Source of the DNA: an uncultured Gammaproteobacteria bacterium
Lineage (GTDB): Bacteria; Patescibacteriota; Microgenomatia; Woykebacterales; RBG-16-39-9b
NCBI GenBank assembly: GCA_965231125.1
Contig: OZ246414.1
Coordinates: 576,137-640,136, forward strand
DNA: 64,000 nt
Reading direction: 5' to 3'
Position numbers and translations under genes: made by a program. Positions 11,109 through 36,932 of the stretch are shown piece after piece. The notes beneath the pieces were generated by a model, which ran no database searches, had not been told where the DNA came from, and worked only from the letters and a program-made list of their open reading frames with translations. Positions within the stretch are counted from its first letter, which is position 1. Each line of letters opens with the position of its first letter.

Positions 11109-11384
11109 CCTCCTTTCTACCTATAATAGTCGCTTAACAAAAAGCGTCTAGTGAATACTTCGACAAGCTCATCATTCATCAACCGCCTTTATTTGGCAGT
11201 TTTACACTTCATATTATATCACAAATCCAACCGAAAGTCAAATCCTATAAGATATTATGAAAGTTTCAGACTACCGTCTTCAGGTTCAAATATCTTGCGC
11301 TTGAGCAATAGTTATCACTATTATTCTCAAGCTAAGGTCAAGTTAATTGAAGTCAAAGAGGAGTTCTGATATAATTACGCACGT

Positions 11385-19960: not shown

Positions 19961-20215
19961 GATAAATTTTTTGGGCCGAGGGCGGGAATCGAAAGCTTCG
20001 CATTCTGCGTCTTCCAGACTATGAACCCGCAAGGTGGTGCCACCAACGGATTTAAAGAATCTATATAAATTCTTGCGCATTTTGGTGGACCTCACGAATT
20101 TGGCTTGGAACTCGCTGGTCCAAAACCTAAAACAATATCAATTCCTAACTACCTTACCTTATTTTGAGGCTAAATACAACTATAAATCTAACTACCAGAC
20201 TTTATTAGAAACTAA

Positions 20216-21981: not shown

Positions 21982-22170
21982 ATGATGAGCTTATCAAGAG
22001 CAAGAAAAATACTAGGTAAAAAGTACTCTCACTTAACAAATGAGGAAATCGAAATGTTGCTGACTAAAACCTATCCCTTGGCTGATATGGTAACCAACCT
22101 GATTGCTAAAAAGGTGTTCGAAAGTCGCGTTAGGATTATTGACTCTGAGAAGGGAAGGACAGATGATTAA
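21982..22170 (+). CDS. small hypothetical ORF immediately upstream of the recombinase (candidate accessory/directionality factor)
   Basis: 62-aa ORF preceded by an 8-bp-stem hairpin CACTCGGG...CCCGAGTG. Speculative. Confidence 0.25.
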   Translation: MMSLSRARKILGKKYSHLTNEEIEMLLTKTYPLADMVTNLIAKKVFESRVRIIDSEKGRTDD

Positions 22171-23797
22171 GCCTGAAGGCAAAAAGATGAAAGCAATAAT
22201 CTACTGTCGGGTTTCCACCGAGGAACAAGTTAAGGGCTATAGCTTGGATTTCCAAGAAAAACAGAGCCTAGAATACGCTGAAAGAAACGGATTTGAAGTA
22301 TTGAAGGTTTTTGTTGAGGAAGGAGAATCAGCCAAAGTTATCAGTCGGACTAAGTTAACTGAACTTCTCAATTTTTGCAAGGAAAACATAGGTCAAATTG
22401 ATGTTCTAATCGTCCACAAGTTAGATAGATTTGCCCGAAACCAACAAGACCACCAAGCCATAAGGGCGATACTTGCTCAATATGGCGTAATACTTCGTTC
22501 CGCCACCGAACCAATAGACGATACGCCCGTAGGGAAACTTATGGAAAATTTCCTCTCCTCTATTGCTCAATTTGATAATGATATTAGGGCTGAAAGAGTA
22601 ACTCTTGGTATGAAGGAGAAGCTAAAACAGGGTTTGTGGGCCTTTGTGGCCCCCTTAGGCTATAAAAACGTGGTTGTCAACAAAGTTAGTACCATTGTTC
22701 CTGATGAAAAGATTGCACATTTAATTAAAAGGCTATTTGAGGAGTATGCAACTGGTTTACATACCTATGAAAGTTTAGCTAATTTTATGACTAAGCTCGG
22801 TCTTAGGACTAAAAAAGGAAGTAAATTGTCTAAACAGACAATACAAAAGATTTTAGTTAATAAACTTTATGTCGGGATTATAGATGTTCCAAGTTTGGAC
22901 ATTGTAGACATTGAAGGAAAATTTGAGGCTATTATCAGCAAGGACCCTTTTTATAAAGTACAGCGTTTAAGAGAAGGTAAGGGATTTACCCAAGAACATA
23001 GGCTTAGAATACACCCAGATTTTATCCTGAGACGCTCTTTACTTTGTCCAAAATGCCGAAAGTCTCTTACAGGTAGTTGGTCAAAAGGCAAAAGTAAAAG
23101 ATACGCCTATTATCACTGCACAACAAAGGGTTGTCCACTAAGATCAATACCTAAGAAGGACATTGATAAGACTTTTCTGGCCCTGCTCAAGGCGACTAAA
23201 CCTACAGGCGAATATATAAAGCTCTTTAAGGAAGTTGTAAGGGAAGTTTGGCAAAAGAAGTATGATGAGAAGTTCAAAGAGGTTAAAAGATTGGAGTATG
23301 AGTTGGCACAGATTAGGGAGCTGAAAGACGCCCTAATTGAACAAAACGCTAAAAGGGTACTTGAGGACAATGATTTCAAGGAGAAAATTAGGAAAGTTAA
23401 TGATGAAATTGCTCACAAAGAATTGGTAAGAAACGAAGCTAGAACAGATGAGGTAGATATAGAATTGGTCTTAAACCTTGCCGAAACAATACTTACAAAC
23501 GTCTCCATTATTTGGTTAGAAGCTCCCTTGGAACACAAAGTGAGGTTTCAACAGCTTCTTTACCCGAAAGGTGTGATCTATAACAACGGAGTTATTGGAA
23601 CTCTGGAATTAGGTTTACCATTCAAGATAATTAGCGAAGCTCGTGGTGAAAAGTCTGAAATGGTGGGCAAGGGGGGACTCGAACCCCCAAGGCTTTACAG
23701 CCAACGGATTTTAAGTCCGTCGCGTATACCAGTTCCGCCACTCGCCCCAAAATTGCTAAATCCCGTTGCGTATACCACTAGCTTACAAACCGATTGA
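22163..23797 (+). CDS. large serine recombinase (resolvase catalytic domain + recombinase domain + zinc-ribbon)
   Basis: N-terminus AIIYCRVSTEEQ with catalytic Ser. GGAAGG SD-like sequence before ATG 22163 (an alternative ATG is at 22187). CxxC...C Zn-ribbon region. The 3' ~135 nt of the ORF overlap tRNA-Leu on the opposite strand. Confidence 0.8.
   Translation: MIKPEGKKMKAIIYCRVSTEEQVKGYSLDFQEKQSLEYAERNGFEVLKVFVEEGESAKVISRTKLTELLNFCKENIGQIDVLIVHKLDRFARNQQDHQAIRAILAQYGVILRSATEPIDDTPVGKLMENFLSSIAQFDNDIRAERVTLGMKEKLKQGLWAFVAPLGYKNVVVNKVSTIVPDEKIAHLIKRLFEEYATGLHTYESLANFMTKLGLRTKKGSKLSKQTIQKILVNKLYVGIIDVPSLDIVDIEGKFEAIISKDPFYKVQRLREGKGFTQEHRLRIHPDFILRRSLLCPKCRKSLTGSWSKGKSKRYAYYHCTTKGCPLRSIPKKDIDKTFLALLKATKPTGEYIKLFKEVVREVWQKKYDEKFKEVKRLEYELAQIRELKDALIEQNAKRVLEDNDFKEKIRKVNDEIAHKELVRNEARTDEVDIELVLNLAETILTNVSIIWLEAPLEHKVRFQQLLYPKGVIYNNGVIGTLELGLPFKIISEARGEKSEMVGKGGLEPPRLYSQRILSPSRIPVPPLAPKLLNPVAYTTSLQTD
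23661..23747 (-). tRNA. tRNA-Leu (anticodon UAA), long variable arm
   Basis: Fold: GGGCGAG/CTTGCCC acceptor (one G-T pair), anticodon stem ACGGA/TCCGT with loop CTTAAAA, long variable arm, T-arm GGGGGTTCGAGTCCCCC, CCA encoded. It lies entirely inside the 3' end of the recombinase ORF on the other strand. Confidence 0.8.
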
Positions 23798-27657: not shown

Positions 27658-28107
27658 TTATTTTGAAAGAAGATCTTTAATTCTTTTTTCTATTTCCTCG
27701 CGTTTGATCTTTTCCAGTTTCGCCTCGTTTCTAACAGCTTTTAGGCCTTCACCTCTTAACGTGTCAGAATCTAATATACTTGCCTTCATCCTACAATAAT
27801 CCGCATATAAGGAAGAATTGTAATCTTGCCAATCGTCTTGAATTCGTTGCAAGATTTTTTTGTCAAATTTATATCTTTCAATACTCCTTGCATAATCATC
27901 AACAAAGCTACGCAAGTCCTTTAATTCTTTAGACCACATTTCTACGTCTTGTTTGTAAATCTTAGTGTCCTCTTTCGAGTTATCGGGATCTTCTGAGTCC
28001 TTTTTTGCTCGCTCTATGTATTCTTCTAGTTCTTTTTCAGTAACTTGATACCAATATTTGTTGATGTCGTCTGGATTTTCAAATGGTCCGAATATTCCGT
28101 CGGTCAT
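27658..28107 (-). CDS. coiled-coil hypothetical protein (cargo gene 2)
   Basis: 149 aa, highly charged, predicted coiled coil. Confidence 0.4.
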   Translation of the reverse strand: MTDGIFGPFENPDDINKYWYQVTEKELEEYIERAKKDSEDPDNSKEDTKIYKQDVEMWSKELKDLRSFVDDYARSIERYKFDKKILQRIQDDWQDYNSSLYADYCRMKASILDSDTLRGEGLKAVRNEAKLEKIKREEIEKRIKDLLSK

Positions 28108-28172
28108 ATTACTCGTATTCTATCAATTTTTTCACAAAATTACTATAGAAATAGATAGTATCTCGCAAACCC

Positions 28173-28200
28173 TTGACACAAAAGAAAAACTATTTATAAT
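28173..28200 (+). promoter_or_regulatory. sigma70-like promoter (TTGACA-16-TATAAT)
   Basis: Sits in the divergent intergenic region and would drive cargo gene 3. Confidence 0.5.
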
Positions 28201-28237
28201 TGGTTCAAATATATACCTCTACGACTTGAAAGTAACT

Positions 28238-29101
28238 ATGACCAAAGATGAAGTTATAAATAAACTTAAAGAGTTAGCTATTAAATTACATACTCCTCGA
28301 TTAAGGCAGAAGGATATTCGATCAGTTAAAAGATTGGAATATTACATTTCAATTCATTTTAAGAAACTTGCACCTGCATTAAAAGCTGCCGGCCTGGACC
28401 CTACACCCTTAGCTGTCAAAATGAGCATTTCTGATAAAGAGTTACTTAGTTATCTTTTGGGGCTTGGAAAGAAAATTGGAAAAAAGCCGACTGTTATGGA
28501 CGTCAAGAGGGATGGTAGGTTTTCAGAAAAAATTTTTAAGAGGTTTGGGAATATCAAAAAGGCTTATGAACTAGCAACTAACGAATCCAAATCACAAACA
28601 ACCAAAGATGACAAAGAAGTATATTTAGTAGAATTTCCAAACAGACCAGTATTTTGGGGAAGGGCAGCAGAAATGTACATCGTAGCCGAGTTGATGTATC
28701 GAGGTTATAACTCAAGTCTTTTACCGGTTGATTTAGGAGTGGATGTCATTGCAATCAAAGATAGCAAAACTTTCTATTTCCAGGTTAAAAATATTTCTTT
28801 CGATAAAGTAGCAAGTAGAACTATTCCAATTACAACTAGTTCCTTCTCAAAAAATCAAAGCAGCAATATGTTCTATGTTTTTGTACTTCAACGCGGCCAA
28901 GGGAAAAATGTTCTTTTTCTTCCTTATCAGAAGATGCACGAACTCATTAACAAAAGCCTTATTTTGTTTAATAAAGAGAATAAAGATTTTTCGATATGTA
29001 TCTCTTTGAATGACAAGGTAGTAAATATTCATACACCCTCAGAAAGAACCAAGTTCGAAGACGTCTCTAGTTATCTTGATGATTGGGATGTAATTGTTTA
29101 A
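28238..29101 (+). CDS. hypothetical protein with possible PD-(D/E)xK nuclease-like C-terminal region (cargo gene 3)
   Basis: Start at ATG 28238 downstream of the promoter (the 6-frame ORF extends further upstream to 28058). VDLGVDVIAIKD...FYFQVKN resembles a D...(D/E)xK nuclease core. Weak evidence. Confidence 0.35.
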   Translation: MTKDEVINKLKELAIKLHTPRLRQKDIRSVKRLEYYISIHFKKLAPALKAAGLDPTPLAVKMSISDKELLSYLLGLGKKIGKKPTVMDVKRDGRFSEKIFKRFGNIKKAYELATNESKSQTTKDDKEVYLVEFPNRPVFWGRAAEMYIVAELMYRGYNSSLLPVDLGVDVIAIKDSKTFYFQVKNISFDKVASRTIPITTSSFSKNQSSNMFYVFVLQRGQGKNVLFLPYQKMHELINKSLILFNKENKDFSICISLNDKVVNIHTPSERTKFEDVSSYLDDWDVIV

Positions 29102-29175: not shown

Positions 29176-29388
29176 GGCGCGGCGGGTGGGGTCGCCGCGC
29201 TGGAGCAAGCGAGGCCGAAGGCCGAGCTAATCAAATGAAGTTCGACATTTTTCGTAAACCGCCAGCCAGTAAAGAGAAGAAAGAGGTTGGGAGGTAGCGC
29301 TTTCCGCGCCTTTACCCTGAGGAACGTAGGGCGCCTCCGCGGAAAGCGCGTCAAATCCGCCTTTTTTGAAACTTGCGGACAGCCGCCG
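29176..29388 (-). repeat. GC-rich structured repeat, complete unit B+A (copy 2, inverted)
   Basis: 29176-29269 is the reverse complement of A (26934-27027). 29262-29388 is the reverse complement of B (30883-31007). Contains a 12-bp perfect stem GCGCTTTCCGCG...CGCGGAAAGCGC. Confidence 0.8.
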
Positions 29389-29486: not shown

Positions 29487-31016
29487 ATGATTAAATATAT
29501 CGCATATTGCAGAAAATCAACAGATGAACCGGACAGACAAATTTTGTCTATTGAGGCACAAGTTGCAGAACTTGAGGAATTCGCCGCAAAGGAGAATTTA
29601 AAAATAGTTTCTTTCATTACTGAGAGTAAAACTGCCAAAGAGCCAGGAAGACAAAAATTTGCGGAGGTTTTGGAAAAGATAGAAAACGGCGTAGCCGCCG
29701 GTATCATCTCATGGCATCCAGACAGACTTGCAAGAAATTCTGTTGATGGCGGAAAGATTATCTACTTATTGGATACCGGAAAATTACTTGATTTAAAATT
29801 TCCCAGTTTCTGGTTTGAGAATACTCCGCAAGGTAAATTTATGCTTAATATTGCTTTTGGTCAAAGCAAATATTATGTGGATAATCTTTCCGAAAATGTA
29901 AAACGAGGCAATCGCCAAAAACTTCGTCGCGGTGAGTGGCCTAACCAAGCGCAATTTGGCTATCTAAACATTAACAAGAAAATAGAGGTTGATAAGAAAC
30001 GAGCCAAGTATGTGCAACAAGCTTTCCAGCTTTTTGCTACCGGCGGCTATGGATTTGCTGACATCCGCAAATTTTTCAACGAAAACAAAATTTTCAATAA
30101 GTCCGGCCACGAACTTCATTTGGATAAAGTCAAAAGAATTCTGACTGATCCGTTTTACTACGGAGTAATGAGATTTTGCGGCGAACTTTACGAAGGAAAA
30201 CAGGAACCGCTAATATCCAAGAAACTTTTTGATAAGTGCCAAGAAGTAGTCAAACGCAAAAGCCGCAAGGTTAAAAATAACAAACACCTTTTTGATTTTC
30301 TAGGTTTGATTAAGTGTGGCGAATGTAGCGGCGCAATTACGGCGGAAAAACACACTAAGTATTACAAGCGAACTAATAGAACCGCTGAATATATTTACTA
30401 TCGTTGTTCCAAGAAAAAAGGTGCTTGCTCGCAAAAATATATTGAAAAGGTAGAAATTGAAAAGCAATTAAGGGAAAATGTTTTGCGAGCATCTTTGCCG
30501 CCGTTCGCCGCCAAAAAGTTTCTTGAGTGGGCCGATAAAGACGCAAACGAGGAAAAACAGAAATCTTCCGGTATTGTTTTGACCTATCAACTTCAACTCA
30601 AAGAAACAGAAGAAAAGACAGACCGTTTGCTTGAGGGATATCTCGATAAGATAATTAGTTCAGAAGATTACCAAAAGAAGAAAAACGAATTAGTAGAATC
30701 AAAGTCGCTTCTTAACTCCAAAATCAAGGATATTTTCCAAAACGGCGCTGAGTGGCTCGAACCTTTCCAAGAATTCGTAAATAGTGCGCTATCAGCGCAC
30801 AAAATCGCGCGCGCAAAAAATAGTTGCCATGATTTATCTATCATGGCAAAAACTGTCGGCTCGAACTTCTTTTTAATGGATCGGCGGCTGTCCGCAAGTT
30901 TCAAAAAAGGCGGATTTGACGCGCTTTCCGCGGAGGCGCCCTACGTTCCTCAGGGTAAAGGCGCGGAAAGCGCTACCTCCCAACCTCTTTCTTCTCTTTA
31001 CTGGCTGCCGGGCTAG
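29487..31016 (+). CDS. large serine recombinase (resolvase domain + recombinase domain + zinc-ribbon)
   Basis: N-terminus IAYCRKSTDEPDRQ with catalytic Ser. Cys-rich region CGEC...C...C. The last ~44 codons are encoded by repeat B, and the stop codon lies inside the 3' end of tRNA-Gln. Confidence 0.8.
   Translation: MIKYIAYCRKSTDEPDRQILSIEAQVAELEEFAAKENLKIVSFITESKTAKEPGRQKFAEVLEKIENGVAAGIISWHPDRLARNSVDGGKIIYLLDTGKLLDLKFPSFWFENTPQGKFMLNIAFGQSKYYVDNLSENVKRGNRQKLRRGEWPNQAQFGYLNINKKIEVDKKRAKYVQQAFQLFATGGYGFADIRKFFNENKIFNKSGHELHLDKVKRILTDPFYYGVMRFCGELYEGKQEPLISKKLFDKCQEVVKRKSRKVKNNKHLFDFLGLIKCGECSGAITAEKHTKYYKRTNRTAEYIYYRCSKKKGACSQKYIEKVEIEKQLRENVLRASLPPFAAKKFLEWADKDANEEKQKSSGIVLTYQLQLKETEEKTDRLLEGYLDKIISSEDYQKKKNELVESKSLLNSKIKDIFQNGAEWLEPFQEFVNSALSAHKIARAKNSCHDLSIMAKTVGSNFFLMDRRLSASFKKGGFDALSAEAPYVPQGKGAESATSQPLSSLYWLPG
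30883..31007 (+). repeat. GC-rich structured repeat, B part (copy 3, forward), fused to the tRNA-Gln 3' end
   Basis: 125-bp exact inverted match to 29262-29388. It ends in CTGGCTG, which also forms the discriminator+CCA of tRNA-Gln on the other strand. Confidence 0.8.
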
Positions 31017-31075
31017 GATTCGAACCTAGATAACAGGCTTCAAAGGCCCGTGTCCTACCGTTAGACGACCCGGCA
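31002..31075 (-). tRNA. tRNA-Gln (anticodon UUG)
   Basis: Fold: TGCCGGG/CCCGGCA acceptor, 3-bp D-stem, anticodon stem CGGGC/GCCTG with loop CTTTGAA, T-arm CTAGGTTCGAATCCTAG, discriminator G, CCA encoded. Confidence 0.75.
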
Positions 31076-31099
31076 ATAAATAACACTGTGTCGAATCCA

Positions 31100-31174
31100 T
31101 GGTGCCGAGGGAGGGAATTGAACCCCCGACGCTGTGCTCTTCAGGCACACGCTCTACCACTGAGCTACCTCGGC
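31100..31174 (-). tRNA. tRNA-Phe (anticodon GAA)
   Basis: Fold: GCCGAGG/CCTCGGC acceptor, anticodon stem TGTGC/GCACA with loop CTGAAGA, T-arm GGGGGTTCAATTCCCTC, CCA encoded. Confidence 0.85.
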
Positions 31175-31188
31175 ATGTAATTTATTTC

Positions 31189-31233
31189 TGGTGGGTGATT
31201 AGGGACTCGAACCCCAGACCTTCTCGGTATAAG
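31189..31233 (-). pseudogene. tRNA 3' half (anticodon-loop-to-CCA fragment, Val-like)
   Basis: Sequence CTTATAC-CGAGA-AGGTC-TGGGGTTCGAGTCCCTA-ATCACCC-A-CCA. There is no cognate 5' half adjacent. The complementary acceptor strand GGGTGAT lies at 31467-31473. Confidence 0.4.
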
Positions 31234-31258
31234 TCGCCTTGCGCCTTGCGAAAAATCC

Positions 31259-31336
31259 TGGTGGGCACTGAGGGACTCGAACCCCCGGCCTTCTCGGTGT
31301 AAACGAGACGCTCTAAACCAACTGAGCTAAGTGCCC
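31259..31336 (-). tRNA. tRNA-Val (anticodon UAC)
   Basis: Fold: GGGCACT/AGTGCCC acceptor, anticodon stem TCTCG/CGAGA with loop TTTACAC, T-arm GGGGGTTCGAGTCCCTC, CCA encoded. The acceptor helix is extended by the flanking inverted repeat GAAAAATCC/GGATTTTTC. Confidence 0.85.
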
Positions 31337-31439
31337 AGGATTTTTCTAAAACGAGACGCTCTTAGTCCACGACCTGCCTTCCAGCAGGCAAGAGTGGTCG
31401 CAGCATTTGAGAGTACCCAAATCACTTGGATTTGGTTAC

Positions 31440-31473
31440 GGAGAATGCTATCCTCCAACTGAGCTAATCACCC
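31440..31473 (-). pseudogene. tRNA 5' half (acceptor + D-arm start, GGGTGATTAGCTCAGTTGG...)
   Basis: Its acceptor strand is perfectly complementary to the ATCACCC of the 3' half at 31189-31233, about 205 nt away with tRNA-Val in between. Confidence 0.35.
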
Positions 31474-31483
31474 TCGTAATATT

Positions 31484-31569
31484 TGGTGCGGACGAGAGGA
31501 CTTGAACCTCCAACCCTTGCGGGACATGCACCTCAAGCATGCGCGTATACCAAATTCCGCCACGTCCGC
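31484..31569 (-). tRNA. tRNA-Leu (anticodon GAG), long variable arm
   Basis: Fold: GCGGACG/CGTCCGC acceptor, anticodon stem CATGC/GCATG with loop TTGAGGT, long variable arm, T-arm GGAGGTTCAAGTCCTCT, CCA encoded. Confidence 0.8.
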
Positions 31570-31577
31570 ATATAATA

Positions 31578-31662
31578 TGGTGCAGGTGAGAGGACTCGAA
31601 CCTCCAACCCTTGCGGGATACGGCTCTGAACCGTACGCGTATACCAGTTCCGCCACACCTGC
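31578..31662 (-). tRNA. tRNA-Leu (anticodon CAG), long variable arm
   Basis: Fold: GCAGGTG/CACCTGC acceptor, anticodon stem TACGG/CCGTA with loop TTCAGAG, long variable arm, T-arm GGAGGTTCGAGTCCTCT, CCA encoded. Confidence 0.8.
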
Positions 31663-31696
31663 ACGCCTACCATAGTCCACAAGCCAAGTCATAATT

Positions 31697-31744
31697 GGCG
31701 AAGTGGTCGCAGGATGCGTTAGCATCCTCTTCCGCCACCGCGGC
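31697..31744 (-). other. tRNA-like fragment / degenerate tRNA (no canonical T-arm)
   Basis: GCCGCGG-TGGCGGAAGAGG has a Leu-like acceptor and D-arm. It is followed by a GGATGC...GCATCC hairpin and ends in CGCCA. It does not fold into a complete cloverleaf. Confidence 0.25.
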
Positions 31745-31852
31745 ATTTTAGCTAAGATATTCTACCAAATCAACGGGTTTAGTTCAATTTGAGTGGATTA
31801 TTTTACCTCATTTTGTTAGAATTTACACGTTTTGCTGGGTTAGAGAAATTAT

Positions 31853-31926
31853 TCGGGGGTCGTCTAATGGTAGGACAACAGACTCTGGATCTGTGAATTG
31901 GGGTTCGAATCCCTGCCCCCGAGCCA
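31853..31926 (+). tRNA. tRNA-Gln (anticodon CUG)
   Basis: Fold: TCGGGGG/CCCCCGA acceptor, anticodon stem ACAGA/TCTGT with loop CTCTGGA, T-arm GGGGTTCGAATCCC, discriminator G, CCA encoded. Confidence 0.8.
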
Positions 31927-31991
31927 AAGTGAGAATCCTTAGTCCGAAGGACGCAGGATGCACTGGCATACTGATCCCGCAGCCAACTACC

Positions 31992-33185
31992 ATGAGTAAA
32001 ACAGAAACTGCAAAAATTTTATTAAAAGGTCTTGTCGCACCGGCCGGTTGGACAAATCCCGCACCGGCCGGTGAATTAAAAACCCAGTTAGAAAAATATT
32101 TTCAAACAAGAGTCTTCCCAATTAATTCTGGAAGAGCTGCCATCTACTCAATTTTAAAGTCCACCGGTATTGGTGAGGGAGATGAAGTTATAATCCAAGC
32201 CTACACTTGTAACGCCGTCCCGAACCCGGTTTTGTGGGCCAGTGCTACACCAATTTATTCCGATATAGATGAAGAAACTTTGAATGTTAATCCCGAAAGT
32301 CTCAAGGAAAAAATAACTGCAAAAACAAAAGCAATAATACTGCAGCATACTTTCGGGCGGCCGGGGCCAATTGAAGAAGTGTTGGAAATCGCCAAAAACC
32401 ACAACCTTTTGGTCATCGAAGACTGCGCCCACAGCCTTGGGGCTGAGTATAAAGGTAAAAAGCTCGGAACTTTTGGGGATTTCGCCATCGTATCTTTCGG
32501 AAGAGAAAAAGTTATCAGTTCGCTTTCCGGTGGTGCTATATTAGTAAACAATAAAAGGTTCATTGGAGCAATTGATGAGTTTACCAAAGGCCTTAGCTAC
32601 CCTTCTTTTATAACCTACTTAAAAGAATTTAATAATTTTTTTACTTGGCGGCTCTTAATTAGAAAAGTCTTTTTTAGCGGTTTTGGTGCCGGCTTGTTGA
32701 ATTTTCTCAACAGTCAGGATTTTTTCAACGTGGTTACTTCAAGTAAAGAACTCTCTGGGGAAAAACCGCCTTGGTACCCAGCGGCATTTCCCGGAACTTT
32801 TGCCAAAATTGCTTTGCTAGAATTTCCTAAAATTGATGAAATCAACCAGCGAAGAAACGAGATTGCCCACTTTTACGAAAAAAATATCAAGAACGGCGCT
32901 TTTAGACTGTTACCTCACCACGAAGGAATTTACTTGAGGTTTGTAGTTTTGCACGAAAACCCAACTCCTATCTTTGAGGAGGCTAAAAAACGCCATTTTT
33001 GGTTCGGAAATTGGTACAGCAGCCCAATTTACCCGTCAAGGGCAGATATAGCTAAAATGCACTACGACGAGGGCACCTGCCCAGTAGCGGAAAAAATTGC
33101 TTCGCAAACTATTAACCTGCCAAACTATGTCGGGATGAAAGATGACGAGGTACAGGAAGTGGTTGGTTTTATAAATAACTACTAG
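31992..33185 (+). CDS. DegT/DnrJ/EryC1/StrS-family PLP-dependent sugar aminotransferase
   Basis: Start at ATG 31992 (the upstream ORF extension overlaps the tRNA). Motifs HTFGRPGPIEEV...LLVIEDCAHSLGA...GDFAIVSFGREK are typical of this family, including the Schiff-base Lys region. Confidence 0.75.
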   Translation: MSKTETAKILLKGLVAPAGWTNPAPAGELKTQLEKYFQTRVFPINSGRAAIYSILKSTGIGEGDEVIIQAYTCNAVPNPVLWASATPIYSDIDEETLNVNPESLKEKITAKTKAIILQHTFGRPGPIEEVLEIAKNHNLLVIEDCAHSLGAEYKGKKLGTFGDFAIVSFGREKVISSLSGGAILVNNKRFIGAIDEFTKGLSYPSFITYLKEFNNFFTWRLLIRKVFFSGFGAGLLNFLNSQDFFNVVTSSKELSGEKPPWYPAAFPGTFAKIALLEFPKIDEINQRRNEIAHFYEKNIKNGAFRLLPHHEGIYLRFVVLHENPTPIFEEAKKRHFWFGNWYSSPIYPSRADIAKMHYDEGTCPVAEKIASQTINLPNYVGMKDDEVQEVVGFINNY

Positions 33186-33207
33186 TTATTGTTCGAAGGG
33201 GAAGTGT

Positions 33208-34248
33208 ATGAAATTCACCATCGACGAAATAAAAGATAGAGACCTTTGGGAAGAGTTTTCCCTTAGTTCTAACCTAAATACCTTTCTTCAAAGCTGGAAT
33301 TGGGTAGTATTCAATGAATCTTTGGGTCGCAAGATATTTCGGCTCGGAGTTTTAGAAGGAAAAAAGTTAGTTGCCATCTGCCTGCTAATTAAACATGAAA
33401 CTCAAGTTGGAAATTATTTATATGCTCCTCGAGGACCGGTTTTTTCTTGGCAGGAATTAAAAATTCTGGATTTAATTATCCGGCGAGCAAAAGAAATCGC
33501 GCTCGGTGAGGGTTGTATTTTCATTAAAATGGACCCACTTCTGGAAGAATCTCCCGAGAATAGAAAAATCTTTAGAGATAGGGGATTTACACCGGCTGTT
33601 ACCTTTGTGCAAGTAGAAGACGCTTGGCTATTAAGGTTAGATAAACCCGAAGAGGAATTACTTGCTGACATGAGAAAAACAACTCGATACTTAGTGAGGC
33701 ATGAAGCCGAAAAAGGAGTCAAGGTGGAAATTAGCGATAAACTATCGGACATAAAATATTTCACGGATCTTCTTTACCAGACCGCCTCCCGGAAAAATTT
33801 TGTCAATCACCCTAAGGAATATTACATAAAACAGTTCGAGATTTTATCTGCCGATAATCAAATGAGAATTTTTAAAGCTGTGAAAGGTAAGAAAATTCTG
33901 GCGATGGCGGTCGTGGCTTTTTACGCAGAAGCAGCCTTTTACCTGCACGGGGCTTCTGCGCCAGAGGCGCAATCGGCCGGTTACCCCTTACAGTGGGAAA
34001 TTATTAAAGAGGCGAAAAGAAGAGGTTTGAAAATCTATAATTTTTGGGGGGTAGTCAAAGATAAAAACTTTCGTCCGGGCCACCCTTGGTACGGATTTTC
34101 GCTTTTCAAACGCGGCTTCGGTGGGTACAAATACTCTTATATTAGAGCTCAAGACTTACCCATCTCTCCGAAATATTGGCTTTACCGATATGCCGAAAAA
34201 GGAAGAAGACTTCTGAACAGAATCCGAAGCGGGTATTGGGAAGACTAA
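33208..34248 (+). CDS. FemAB-family peptidyltransferase-like protein (aminoacyl-tRNA dependent cell-wall branch transferase family)
   Basis: 346 aa with the two GNAT-like lobes typical of FemX/FemA. It lies downstream of the sugar aminotransferase gene. Confidence 0.6.
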   Translation: MKFTIDEIKDRDLWEEFSLSSNLNTFLQSWNWVVFNESLGRKIFRLGVLEGKKLVAICLLIKHETQVGNYLYAPRGPVFSWQELKILDLIIRRAKEIALGEGCIFIKMDPLLEESPENRKIFRDRGFTPAVTFVQVEDAWLLRLDKPEEELLADMRKTTRYLVRHEAEKGVKVEISDKLSDIKYFTDLLYQTASRKNFVNHPKEYYIKQFEILSADNQMRIFKAVKGKKILAMAVVAFYAEAAFYLHGASAPEAQSAGYPLQWEIIKEAKRRGLKIYNFWGVVKDKNFRPGHPWYGFSLFKRGFGGYKYSYIRAQDLPISPKYWLYRYAEKGRRLLNRIRSGYWED

Positions 34249-34336
34249 GATTTAAGTATGAATTACTAAGGATGAAGTAAGAATTTAACATATAACTTAG
34301 TACTTAATACTTGATCCTTAATACTTATTTTGTTAT
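34228..34336. repeat. ~105-bp AT-rich repeat, copy 1 (includes the gene 3' end ...YWED*)
   Basis: About 80% identical to 38862-38975. Both copies start in the last codons of unrelated genes that share a WED* C-terminus. Confidence 0.6.
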
Positions 34337-34426
34337 ATTCCCATTTACTCGCGCGAGTAGATCGCTTCGCGCTCTGCGTCCGGCTAAACACCGGACTAAT
34401 GTTCAGCGGTTAATTTTAGCTCGCGT

Positions 34427-34501
34427 GCGCGAGTAGTTCAGCGGTAGAACGCTTCCTTGCCAAGGAAGAGGCCGCCGGTTCAAATCCGGTCTCGCGCTCC
34501 A
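34427..34501 (+). tRNA. tRNA-Gly (anticodon GCC)
   Basis: Fold: GCGCGAG/CTCGCGC acceptor, anticodon stem CTTCC/GGAAG with loop TTGCCAA, T-arm GCCGGTTCAAATCCGGT, CCA encoded. A partial duplicate of its 5' part lies at 34329-34343. Confidence 0.85.
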
Positions 34502-34565
34502 GCAACTTTAGCCTCAATTCAAACGTGGGCAGAACGTAGGCAGAAATGCCTATTTTTTATTCCGC

Positions 34566-35000
34566 TTATCCTAATGCTCGGTGCATATGTCCGTCATAGG
34601 ACTTTACGTGCTCATAAGACTGTTTCACTATTTGTTTAAGGATTGGCAGTTCTATATCGCTGAGCCGCTTGATATATACACAAACCCTGCTCGTAGAGTG
34701 TTTGCCTAAGCGAGCCAGAAGTTCAGAGTAGCGTGCCGTGCCGTCCATAAGGTAAACGGATATCTTACCCTTTCTTGGATAAAAACCAATAGTATGAGAG
34801 TCGCCTTCGTGCCCGCTGTCGTATTTATAGTGGTAAGTATCAAACCCGATAGTGCCTATACCCCACATTTTTGGCTCATGCCCGCTTATTCGCTGCATCA
34901 TTTCAATTAGCACAAGGCTATCTTTTACGGTTTGCTCATCATCAAGTGAAGCAATATAGTCTTTGACTGAACTGTCGTTTTGAGCAGTCATTTTGTCCAT
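34566..35000 (-). CDS. DUF1801 (YdhG-like) domain protein
   Basis: Pattern KMWGIGTIGFDTYHYKYDSGHEGDSHTIGFYPRKGKISVYL is typical of DUF1801. Confidence 0.55.
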   Translation of the reverse strand: MDKMTAQNDSSVKDYIASLDDEQTVKDSLVLIEMMQRISGHEPKMWGIGTIGFDTYHYKYDSGHEGDSHTIGFYPRKGKISVYLMDGTARYSELLARLGKHSTSRVCVYIKRLSDIELPILKQIVKQSYEHVKSYDGHMHRALG

Positions 35001-35352
35001 AAGCCATATTGTACCATCTCAGACAGGGGGGATTACACAGACATTCCACGATGAAATTGCAACTGAGCTAGAAAAGAGACAGCAATGAAATAATGAATAT
35101 ATTGGTTCTATGCGACAGCATTGATAAAATAATAGCACTTCAGGAGTTTAGAAAATAATTGGTTTCTTGAAGCACTAGAGTAGGATAGGGGATTTTCTTC
35201 ACAGCCTCCAAAAGTTCAATTAACGCCCTGTCTGGAGCTCCACGTACTTTAGCCCAGAAGCCCTTGGTTGGTATTAATTTACAAAAAGATAAGTAGAGAC
35301 ACAAAAAAACCTTGCATGAAGCAAGGCTTTTTGTATTGCGTTGTCAACGTAA

Positions 35353-35550
35353 TTAGGCAAGTTTTACATTTTTTGCACTTGGACCTTTTTCACCGTCTAC
35401 AACATCAAATGTAACAGGTGCTCCAACTTCAAGCGCATCAAAAGAAACATCGCTTAAATCATTAGAGTGAAAGAAAAGATCTTTAGTTTCTCCGTCACGA
35501 GAAATAAATCCAAACCCTTTATCCGTTTTTGTTTTAATTGTTCCGTTCAT
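35353..35550 (-). CDS. cspA: cold-shock protein (CspA family)
   Basis: 65 aa with RNP1-like KGFGFI and a cold-shock domain. Confidence 0.85.
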   Translation of the reverse strand: MNGTIKTKTDKGFGFISRDGETKDLFFHSNDLSDVSFDALEVGAPVTFDVVDGEKGPSAKNVKLA

Positions 35551-35810
35551 AGTATTTTTAGATAGATTTGTTAATTAAACCTACTGTACCTCCTTTCGAT
35601 TTTAATATTATACTATATCAAGAGACATTTACCTAATGTATTTGTTTAACAGCCTCAATAAGTCCAAGTAAACCGCTTCGCGTTTTGCGACCATTTCGTG
35701 GACTAAACGCCCTGTCTGGAGCTCCAACGATTTTTGCCTCAGTTTAATTATTACGCCATGTATAAAAAATGGGTATTGCTATTTACCAAAACTCGAATTA
35801 ATATTAAAAC

Positions 35811-36059: not shown

Positions 36060-36183
36060 CAGACTCAAAAAGCTCTAATAGATCGCATTGCGTTCTGAGA
36101 TCAATTCGTGGGCCAAGTGTCCGTTCCGGTGGTAAACATTATCTTTTTGACAAATTTTTCCATACACGCTAGTATTTAATTAC

Positions 36184-36789: not shown

Positions 36790-36849
36790 TTGACTTTCGG
36801 TAAATTTTCTGTTATAATGCATGAGCCTTCGCAAGTCGAAGGCTTTTTT
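36790..36849 (+). promoter_or_regulatory. sigma70-like promoter (TTGACT-17-TATAAT) followed immediately by a terminator-like hairpin (AGCCTTCG...CGAAGGCT-TTTTT); candidate attenuator leader
   Basis: Promoter at 36790-36818, hairpin plus T-run at 36824-36849, and a second hairpin GCCCCGA...TCGGGGC just before ATG 36933. Confidence 0.4.
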
Positions 36850-36932
36850 AGTTCGATGGGTTGAAAGCTCAGCGAACCAGGACGCCATGAGCTGGCGGTC
36901 TTACTAGATGCCCCGATTCACGTCGGGGCGTT

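Follow-up and report, generated by a model that had tools for sequence, protein, structure and literature searches.

A tRNA-Val-type gene interrupted by two copies of a dispersed two-hairpin repeat, with a complete tRNA-Val(UAC) gene nested inside it

We analysed a nested pair of tRNA genes in a 64,000-nucleotide stretch of contig OZ246414.1 (GCA_965231125.1, positions 576,137 to 640,136, forward strand), hereafter the window. An outer gene, here called O, is broken into three pieces by two interruptions, and the second of these encloses a complete tRNA-Val(UAC) gene. Both interruptions are copies of a repeat family, here called E, and lie in opposite orientations. E is a previously undescribed family without a match in Rfam. 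The new part of the finding is this tRNA-seeking repeat family, while the outer gene is probably dead. Taken as a whole, we favour with moderate confidence the explanation that O is a redundant tRNA-Val paralogue inactivated at the DNA level by a mobile mini-element, E. The sequence of the host genome examined comprised the window and about 9 kb adjoining it.

The initial annotation of this DNA had placed two outer tRNA halves with perfectly complementary acceptor strands (GGGTGAT/ATCACCC) on either side of a complete tRNA-Val(UAC). The coordinates and the 7/7 stem of the halves were confirmed, and both ARAGORN and Rfam found the nested gene. A further segment, which had been read as a duplicate of the D-stem and anticodon stem of tRNA-Val, is actually the middle exon of O. 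The 285-nt structure is made up as follows.

31473-31455, minus strand: first piece of O, with the acceptor 5' strand, the D-stem 5' strand and the start of the D-loop (GGGTGATTAGCTCAGTTGG); its acceptor strand pairs 7/7 with 31193-31199
31454-31363, minus strand: D-loop insert of 92 nt (E copy c1)
31362-31349, minus strand: second piece of O, with A21, the D-stem 3' strand, G26, the anticodon-stem 5' strand and loop nt 32-34 (AGAGCGTCTCGTTT)
31348-31337, minus strand: segment between the second piece of O and tRNA-Val (TAGAAAAATCCT)
31336-31259, minus strand: complete inner tRNA-Val(UAC), called by ARAGORN and scored at 72.1 bits by the Rfam tRNA model
31258-31231, minus strand: segment between tRNA-Val and the third piece of O (GGATTTTTCGCAAGGCGCAAGGCGACTT)
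31230-31189, minus strand: third piece of O, with loop nt 35-38 (ATAC), the anticodon-stem 3' strand, the variable loop and the T arm, ending with the acceptor 3' strand, A73 and CCA (ATACCGAGAAGGTCTGGGGTTCGAGTCCCTAATCACCCACCA; ATACCGAGA...ATCACCCACCA)

Joined together, the three colinear pieces of O form a 75-nt cloverleaf with a 7/7 acceptor stem, four paired arms and the usual invariant bases. The tRNA-predictor run proposed with the initial annotation gave different results for the native and the joined sequence. In native sequence O was called neither by ARAGORN, intron mode included, nor by Rfam, and only the inner tRNA-Val was detected, whereas ARAGORN accepted the joined pieces as tRNA-Ile(tat), i.e. 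as a valid cloverleaf with anticodon UAU. Four base pairs differ between O and the inner tRNA-Val, and every change is fully compensated: three belong to the acceptor stem (GGGTGAT/ATCACCC in O, GGGCACT/AGTGCCC in tRNA-Val) and one to the T stem. Because these differences are compensated, the halves of O belong together as a single coherent gene and do not duplicate tRNA-Val. In the predicted fold of the whole 285 nt, the acceptor stem of O closes around the inner cloverleaf (z = -4.5).

Judged by its sequence, O appears to be an ordinary bacterial tRNA-Val(UAC)-type gene in which position 36 has changed from C to T. Its first 24 nt were found in 39 viral or prophage contigs, nearly all of them in tRNA-Val(TAC) genes, and one of the 39 matches O through the anticodon arm except at C36 (TCTCG TTTACAC CGAGA). 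The outer 3' end of O had no match in the viral collection. The initial annotation had considered O either a UAU (Ile2-like) tRNA or one change away from tRNA-Val; the anticodon does agree with tRNA-Ile(UAU), but the body is of the Val type and not of the Ile type. The determinants recognised by E. coli IleRS include C4-G69, C29-G41 and A38, none of which is present in O, and by the E. coli identity rules U36 would impair recognition by ValRS. AUA accounts for 26% of Ile codons (17.4 per 1000), and because it is a common codon an AUA decoder must exist somewhere in the genome. The inner tRNA-Val(UAC) is presumably the working gene of the locus, and since O duplicates its function the disruption of O would be tolerated.

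The family to which both inserts belong has a constant layout. Each E copy consists of a hairpin P1 (a stem of about 7 bp whose loop ranges from 3 to about 40 nt), the trinucleotide GCG, a second hairpin P2 (variable in stem and loop) and a terminal CTA(A), giving a length of 33-92 nt and the consensus 5'-A(G/A)nnnGC - loop - GCnnn(C/U)U - GCG - n - P2 hairpin - A - CUA(A)-3'. At its fourth position, P1 mostly has a pyrimidine-pyrimidine mismatch. Across seven short copies 86.7% of cells were paired and 8/11 pairs had changed on both sides; none of 500 shuffles (0/500) reached the observed values and slid partners paired at only 25-48%. Covariation is present in both helices. The P1 and P2 loops of various copies contain variable extra hairpins.

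Copies in the window were located by pattern, structure and covariance-model searches. The covariance model (R1, built from seven short E copies) found at least nine copies in the 64-kb window and had no match at an E-value up to 1 in 756 kb of unrelated metagenome loci. In all, E occurs at least ten times in the window, or about once per 6 kb, with one more copy just outside it and one in the adjoining 9 kb. For the motif ARNYCGCNNNGCGYYYTGCG, 0.02 matches were expected in the window and four were found, including one at 31231-31250. The copies are listed below with their R1 scores; labels beginning with L denote DegT-syntenic stretches of relatives, drawn from metagenome and assembly collections, or contigs that match or adjoin the window.

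31363..31454, minus strand: c1, long form in the D-loop of O (12.8 bits despite its long loops)
31728-31673, minus strand: c2, splitting the D-loop of a tRNA-Leu remnant (39.2 bits)
31940..31972, minus strand: c3, minimal form, between the DegT start and antisense tRNA-Gln(CUG) (39.3 bits)
34359-34398, plus strand: c4, in a tRNA-Gly 5' remnant (44.7 bits)
35670..35705, plus strand: c5, splitting the non-tRNA 41-nt sequence X (45.5 bits)
31231..31348, plus strand: c6, between nt 34 and 35 of O, with tRNA-Val in its P2 loop (18.4 bits, E-value 0.024)
19990..20021, plus strand: c7, antisense in the T-loop of a Phe-like tRNA 3' remnant (19.1 bits)
11249..11334, plus strand: c8, with long loops, 50 nt upstream of tRNA-Gly(UCC) (18.8 bits; z = -4.9)
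36080..36115, plus strand: c9, degenerate, with GAG for GCG and a CCAA tail (18.3 bits)
36849..36901, minus strand: c10, degenerate (17.0 bits)
L261 11-44: copy just past the window end
L262 3964-4008: copy in the adjoining contig

The D-loop insert c1 comprises P1 (AGCATT/AATGCT plus an inner hairpin), GCGA, P2 (CCAC...GTGG plus an inner hairpin) and ACTA; its 5' boundary is uncertain by about 5 nt (AGGAT). It shares 67/94 aligned positions with the copy in L130, which lies at another locus in another genome. Its motif CTGCGACCACT...GTGGACTA recurs at 31712-31673 in c2, the inserts c1 and c2 each fold as two hairpins, and c1, c2 and the L130 copy match in CTGCGACCAC...GTGGACTA. The anticodon-loop insert c6 was at one stage taken as unrelated to E from a minus-strand reading, which a search of both strands overturned. 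On the plus strand c6 reads AAGTCGC-CTT-GCGCCTT-GCG-A-AAAATCC, then T..antisense tRNA-Val..A, then GGATTTT-T-CTA. The P1-GCG motif is thus followed directly by a perfect 12-nt P2 stem and the canonical tail (CTAA); the DNA fold has z = -3.8, and 78 of the 118 nt of the insert are tRNA-Val.

The features around tRNA-Val that the initial annotation had described can be reassigned accordingly. Its inverted repeat exists, but rather than 9 bp it is a perfect repeat of 12 nt (31250-31261 / 31335-31346) and forms the P2 stem of an E copy on the opposite strand. The 'tandem GCAAGGC' and the 'extended acceptor helix' are likewise present and correspond to P1 and P2 of c6. Of the scenarios offered at the time, the evidence supports the pseudogene, in which insertions split a tRNA gene; these insertions are two copies of one dispersed repeat family.

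c3 is the positional counterpart of a long copy in L130. In L122, P1 of the c4 orthologue has one pair changed from G-C to A-T, with compensation, and the P2 of c8 covaries with the paralogue at L262 3964-4008. The Phe-like 3' remnant that holds c7 (19962-20045, minus strand) retains the T arm, CCTCGGC, C and CAA in place of CCA, and lies 10 nt upstream of tRNA-Pro.

Several other searches and readings of E were abandoned. The pattern TGCGACCACN{8,38}GTGGAC, run against a genome collection, was too loose, and the matches listed were chance hits in unrelated, mostly GC-rich genomes. In the viral collection the E motif had six matches, all of them chance occurrences in coding DNA. Blastn of 30900-31800 against phage records found tRNAs only and no E. 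A hammerhead-like reading of E was rejected by inspection.

E is strongly associated with tRNA genes. Of the ten window copies, seven have an annotated tRNA gene no more than 100 nt away, where 5.6% would be expected to (P = 2e-7). While O is interrupted in the D-loop by c1 and in the anticodon loop (34/35) by c6, other insertions split 5' remnants of tRNA genes in the Leu D-loop (c2), at Gly position 9/10 (c4 and its L122 orthologue) and in the Gln D-loop (L260), or split 3' remnants in antisense, in the Phe-like T-loop (c7) and the Gln T arm (c3 and L130). Every tRNA-associated copy outside O lies in a truncated remnant from which no tRNA could be made. X is a non-tRNA target that holds c5 in the window. 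In L202-204 the corresponding point of X is occupied by a tandem pair of copies (L202 6430-6500, also in L203 and L204), which belong to different subfamilies and stand head to tail. Two of the remnants are laid out as follows.

34351..34426, plus strand: tRNA-Gly 5' remnant GCGCGAGT(A), c4, GTTCAGCGGT and a 16-nt spacer, directly upstream of a complete tRNA-Gly(GCC) at 34427
31664..31744, minus strand: ancestral tRNA-Leu(CAG) 5' remnant, GCCGCGGTGGCGGAAG, c2, TGGTAGGCG, split in the D-loop

The Leu remnant is followed after 1 nt by a complete Leu(CAG) whose acceptor stem differs, with all changes compensated. Four loci share this architecture, in which an old 5' part with E is followed by a complete tRNA of the same isoacceptor, and the acceptor stem differs in three of them: Leu (GCCGCGG vs GCAGGTG), Gln (TCGGGAG vs TGCCGGA) and O vs Val.

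The mode of insertion was determined from three pairs of interrupted and uninterrupted sequences: X at 35650 vs 35202, the Gln remnant vs the complete L130 gene, and the tRNA-Gly remnant vs a complete tRNA-Gly gene. In these, A...CTA is placed cleanly between T and A, without target-site duplication. Duplication of TA was rejected, as filled sites carry one A too many. The left flank of E is only loosely conserved (RANT), and its orientation relative to the tRNA or to transcription is mixed, with about six plus-strand and four minus-strand copies in the window. A resemblance of target sites to an E end-to-end (circle) junction was suggestive for the Gln and Gly sites only and gave no general rule.

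O and tRNA-Val belong to a minus-strand array in the order Leu fragment, Leu(CAG), Leu(GAG), O with Val, Phe and Gln(UUG), at whose head stand two promoter-like sites.

31787-31745, minus strand: two overlapping promoter-like sites

A box, ACCGAAAGTCAA, recurs in the window at about 11222-11233 and about 36820-36835 and in L202 at about 9610; its reverse complement, TTGACTTTCGGT, is the -35 part of sites resembling promoters, and copies of the box flank c8. The promoter context of the window array also precedes an intact Leu(CAG) in L207 and L130, both of which carry an uninterrupted GCCGCGG-type Leu(CAG) at the site of the Leu remnant. Because its acceptor and promoter context match these intact genes, the Leu remnant represents the 5' end of the old gene.

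Relatives lacking E show what the array looks like without the outer gene. In L207/L209, where DegT identity is 69%, and in L258 the array is clean, with no outer gene and no E; it consists of the promoter, Leu(CAG, acceptor GCCGCGG), Leu(GAG), NUDIX, Val(UAC), Phe and Gln(UUG). In L210 NUDIX genes flank Val on both sides. In L207, L209, L210 and L258 a tRNA-Val with acceptor GGGCACT stands between Leu(GAG) and Phe. The inner tRNA-Val of the window has the same acceptor stem and the same array position and is hence the orthologue of the relatives' Val. The comparison of homologous arrays, also proposed with the initial annotation, thus revealed tRNA-Val alone in these four relatives and no intact outer paralogue.

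The small NUDIX genes interleaved with the tRNA array of the relatives (L207 7885-8290; L210 6655-7065 and 7140-7550; L258 1162-1563) have their stop codon inside tRNA-Val; there is none at the window site. A reading of the upstream arm of the tRNA-Val helix as a NUDIX-gene remnant was dropped, the alignment score of 22 being insignificant against shuffles (15.3 +/- 2.9, maximum 26).

The distribution of E is patchy. E is present in the window, L122, L130, L202-204, L259 and L260, and absent from the stretches examined of L207-212, L258 and L123. The window and L122 carry E at the tRNA-Gly site, which is empty in L123 and L207. The X site is filled at 35670, empty at 35202-35242 and in L210, and doubly filled in L202-204. 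c5 shares 32/37 positions with the L260 copy, although the two come from unrelated loci in different genomes, and L259 too has a member of the c5 subfamily at a different locus. Given this patchy distribution, the filled and empty sites and the subfamilies shared between different loci, E is likely to be a mobile element.

The window is part of a bacterial chromosome, as indicated by its housekeeping genes, its Woykebacteria-type DegT and matching Joint Genome Institute (JGI) contigs. It encodes Lon, ClpP, ThrRS, PheST, TyrRS, RecG, RNase III, NusB and IF-3, together with MurT/GatD, FemAB and a class A penicillin-binding protein (PBP). Its DegT-type aminotransferase has its closest named relatives in Candidatus Woykebacteria (Patescibacteria / candidate phyla radiation). 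In JGI metagenome 3300010391 two contigs match parts of the window: L262 overlaps its left end, and L001 corresponds to 30882-34911. Contigs of the same genome are also contained in runs SRR6155503 and SRR6155504.

In the explanation we favour, E would be a small, non-autonomous, structured DNA element that enters tRNA-gene-like DNA between T and A and leaves no duplication. Its insertions would survive only in redundant or already dead copies. O would be one such copy, hit twice in opposite orientations, by c1 in the D-loop and by c6 between anticodon-loop nt 34 and 35. The whole array would be transcribed from the promoter-like sites at 31787-31745. RNase P and 3'-end processing may free tRNA-Val from this precursor, in which the c6 P2 stem would form a 9-12-bp helix round it, and the pieces of O would be discarded as by-products without being rejoined. 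This explanation builds on the observed anatomy, the repeat family with its structure, its insertion sites and its presence or absence at orthologous sites. O is very probably non-functional, and E would appear to be selfish.

Several points weigh against this explanation. The pieces of O are undecayed apart from position 36, which implies that the disruption is recent or that the pieces are still constrained. Between the window and L122 the c4 leader is conserved to the same degree as its tRNA (57/68 positions, stems intact, one compensated change), and some E copies may matter to the host or have taken on a function for it. Among the approximately 50 window ORFs scanned, none was a candidate transposase of E. 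Simple insertion explains neither the exact placement of tRNA-Val inside P2 nor the regularity with which a complete tRNA, having another acceptor stem, comes after an E-bearing 5' remnant, although survivorship may be a sufficient cause of the latter architecture. Finally, an AUA decoder is needed, and O is of the UAU type once joined.

An assembly artefact or chimera as the source of the nested arrangement is extremely improbable. The region is repeat-rich and the JGI assembly ends 300 nt away, at a 130-bp inverted repeat. However, the 285-nt structure is intact in L001, an independent 4-kb contig with 99.9% identity, so the region of interest is independently supported, and its junctions are coherent throughout, with exact exon register and canonical E ends. 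We also consider it very unlikely that O is a functional tRNA (Ile-UAU or Val) from whose RNA both intervening sequences are removed, with RNase P and 3' processing excising tRNA-Val and the halves being trimmed and ligated. The exons of O are flawless and colinear within one transcription unit, the predicted fold closes the O acceptor stem, AUA codons are in use and Patescibacteria tolerate tRNA introns (PMC13011429). Nevertheless, cmscan of 30800-32100, at the gathering threshold and at E-values up to 10, found tRNA only and no group I/II intron or ribozyme. Hand inspection of the junctions of c1, c2, c4, c5 and the L130 copy, made with no dedicated scanner, showed no bulge-helix-bulge; a partial pairing AGUU/GACU could be drawn for c1 and not in the other copies. 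The transcript would contain c1 in sense but c6 in antisense, with the conserved GCG and CUAA only for c1, and because the two lie in opposite orientations one recognition system could not remove both. O lacks the IleRS determinants given above. RNase P products (5'-P, 3'-OH) are not substrates of RtcB, and to our knowledge no known bacterial RNA ligase joins the ends left by RNase P excision of an inner tRNA. RNA splicing, the second scenario of the initial annotation, is thus opposed by the orientations of the two inserts, by the lack of a bulge-helix-bulge or of anything resembling a group I intron, and by the occurrence of E in dead fragments and non-tRNA DNA.

Two further possibilities assign E a different role. 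E could supply the two ends of site-specific cassettes that bring complete tRNA genes into resident ones of the same kind, a model we regard as rather doubtful. On this model an E with tRNA-Val as cargo in its P2 loop entered the anticodon loop of O, killing O and supplying its replacement together; O would be dead here too, and the nesting would be a product of gene replacement and no accident. The Leu, Gly and Gln loci would be eroded later stages that have lost the 3' part of the old gene along with most of the vehicle, and the Val locus would be the one uneroded case, in which both old halves persist. The position of tRNA-Val exactly between the P2 arms of c6 agrees with this model, extra hairpins in the loops of other copies imply that the loops tolerate cargo, four loci have one architecture with the acceptor stem changed in three, and the same architecture is seen without E at tRNA-Leu(TAA) beside a serine recombinase. 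Yet the inner Val is of the type found at the same position in E-less relatives, so that it looks resident and not incoming; moreover, no second tRNA was found inside an E loop, no recognisable vehicle remnants lie at the Leu, Gly and Gln junctions, and no recombinase is tied to E. It is similarly improbable that E, or the serine-recombinase elements abutting tRNA-Leu(TAA) and tRNA-Gln(UUG), takes part in tRNA replacement. Least favoured of these roles, and quite unlikely, is a host-serving REP-like structural motif acting in RNA processing or stability, termination or DNA-protein binding, which would have spread by recombination and not by transposition and would make the helix round tRNA-Val a selected processing stalk. 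Such a motif would fit the conservation of c4 with its whole leader between the window and L122 (stems kept, loops free), the covariation in both helices and the RNase III gene in the window. It fits poorly with the occurrence of E in both orientations relative to transcription and of c8 upstream of promoters, with presence and absence at orthologous sites in close relatives, with near-identical copies at unrelated loci of different genomes, and with the degenerate copies c9 and c10.

Among known systems, E is closest to lineage-specific structured repeats. REP/BIME elements are mobilised by RAYT transposases, and Rickettsia palindromic elements (RPEs) sit inside genes, RNA genes included. Like E, both are structured, non-coding sequences of 30-150 nt that are dispersed within one lineage and are present or absent at orthologous sites. 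Unlike them, E has two dissimilar hairpins with GCG and a CTA(A) tail instead of a single palindrome or REP doublet, it is strongly tied to tRNA-gene sequence, and there is no sequence match; no RAYT-like gene was seen in the window. E has many dispersed copies, a conserved secondary structure, and presence/absence and subfamilies at different loci, as expected of miniature repeats, but the comparison of filled and empty sites reveals no target-site duplication, whereas miniature inverted-repeat transposable elements (MITEs) in the strict sense have one together with terminal inverted repeats. It is thus a lineage-specific structured repeat like REP/RPE, new in its preference for tRNA genes and in carrying a tRNA gene nested in a loop. 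IS200/IS605-derived miniature elements (PATEs) resemble E in lacking a target-site duplication and in having a fixed left-flank base (T) and hairpins near the ends, and hairpins near both ends of E would suit a single-strand mechanism. E differs in being smaller (33-92 nt), with two mutually unrelated hairpins and a loose left flank, and neither a Y1 transposase nor TnpB was found among the window ORFs scanned.

The O locus resembles archaeal multi-intron and split tRNA genes only superficially. In the transposing tRNA introns and split genes of Thermoproteales, Nanoarchaeum and Caldivirga (PMC3218864), breaks also occur at non-canonical positions (D-loop, anticodon loop) and related short sequences have spread among tRNA genes. 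Those introns are, however, removed at a bulge-helix-bulge by a splicing endonuclease, and no such motif is present at O, which has a bacterial host, inserts in opposite orientations and a repeat most of whose copies lie in truncated remnants. Nor does O match a Nanoarchaeum-type split tRNA, with separate loci, own promoters and a complementary leader, as its pieces are colinear within 285 nt under one promoter. Among the window ORFs scanned, which cover part of the genome, none matched an EndA splicing endonuclease or an RtcB-type ligase. Group I introns occur in tRNA genes of Patescibacteria (PMC13011429). They come from the same phylum, interrupt the anticodon loop and, like O, are missed by standard tRNA finders; of the inserts of O, c6 lies at 34/35 of that loop and c1 in the D-loop. 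Group I introns are about 200 nt or more, have a catalytic core and are detectable with Rfam, whereas the inserts of O are 92 and 118 nt and give no Rfam signal.

The third scenario of the initial annotation was a tRNA-targeted insertion with a duplicated 3' part as att site. The neighbourhood does contain serine-recombinase elements, in that two large serine recombinases abut tRNA-Leu(TAA) and tRNA-Gln(UUG), with remnants beside them, but the att model does not fit the halves of O, which complement each other and, unlike att duplicates, are set apart from tRNA-Val by the four compensated changes. Between the halves there is E sequence and the tRNA but no recombinase, the anticodon-loop halves being separated by only 118 nt, 78 of which are tRNA; the nearest (29487-31016) lies beyond Phe and Gln.

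These results bear on annotation, mobile elements and tRNA evolution. O is missed by standard tRNA finders and could be mistaken for a multi-intron or split bacterial tRNA, while the evidence points to a gene broken by repeats. E is a tRNA-preferring, two-hairpin family supported by covariation, whose loops tolerate inserts up to a whole tRNA gene, and its density, clustered on tRNA arrays, is of note in the small, streamlined genomes of the candidate phyla radiation. In the window and in its relatives, tRNA genes have repeatedly given way to copies whose acceptor stems differ, and 5' remnants of the earlier genes have stayed behind at the old promoter. A link between E and this replacement, if there is one, would represent a new route of tRNA gene turnover.

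Both serine recombinase ORFs have further features. The ORF at 29487-31016 is bracketed by the 130-bp inverted repeat (29259-29388, 30882-31011), in which the final 10 nt of tRNA-Gln(UUG) form the outer tips; the 3' end of the ORF enters the right copy and L001 breaks at 30882. This repeat was considered as a giant E and dropped, as there is no P1-GCG or CTAA signature beside it. The second ORF (22103-23797) runs antisense through the whole of tRNA-Leu(TAA) (23661-23747), and an older Leu gene remnant without an E copy (AGTGGTATACGCAACGGGATTTAGC, 23750-23790) lies just upstream of that tRNA. Between the two recombinases, a 5-kb stretch of mostly unassignable ORFs, including one at 28058-29101 with a homing-endonuclease-associated (HNH) repeat, may be an integrated element.

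In L122 at about 400-452 a tRNA-Gln-like gene lacks the whole anticodon arm (TTGCCGGGTCGTCTAATGGTAATCTAGGTTCGAATCCTAGCCCGGCAGCCA); it adjoins about 340 nt of unassigned sequence, in which there was no Rfam match at the gathering threshold. The 41-nt sequence X makes up the 3' portion of a small ORF on the minus strand, which ends ...LIELLEAVKKIPYPTLVLQETNYFLNS. In the window a cold-shock gene (csp) stands between two copies of X (35202-35242, 35353-35550 and 35650-35726), and the corresponding X/csp regions of relatives are L202 6410-6540 and L210 12599-12619 and 14127-14147. Relative to FemAB, csp is in plus orientation in L202-204, L210 and L259 and in minus orientation in the window and L207-209.

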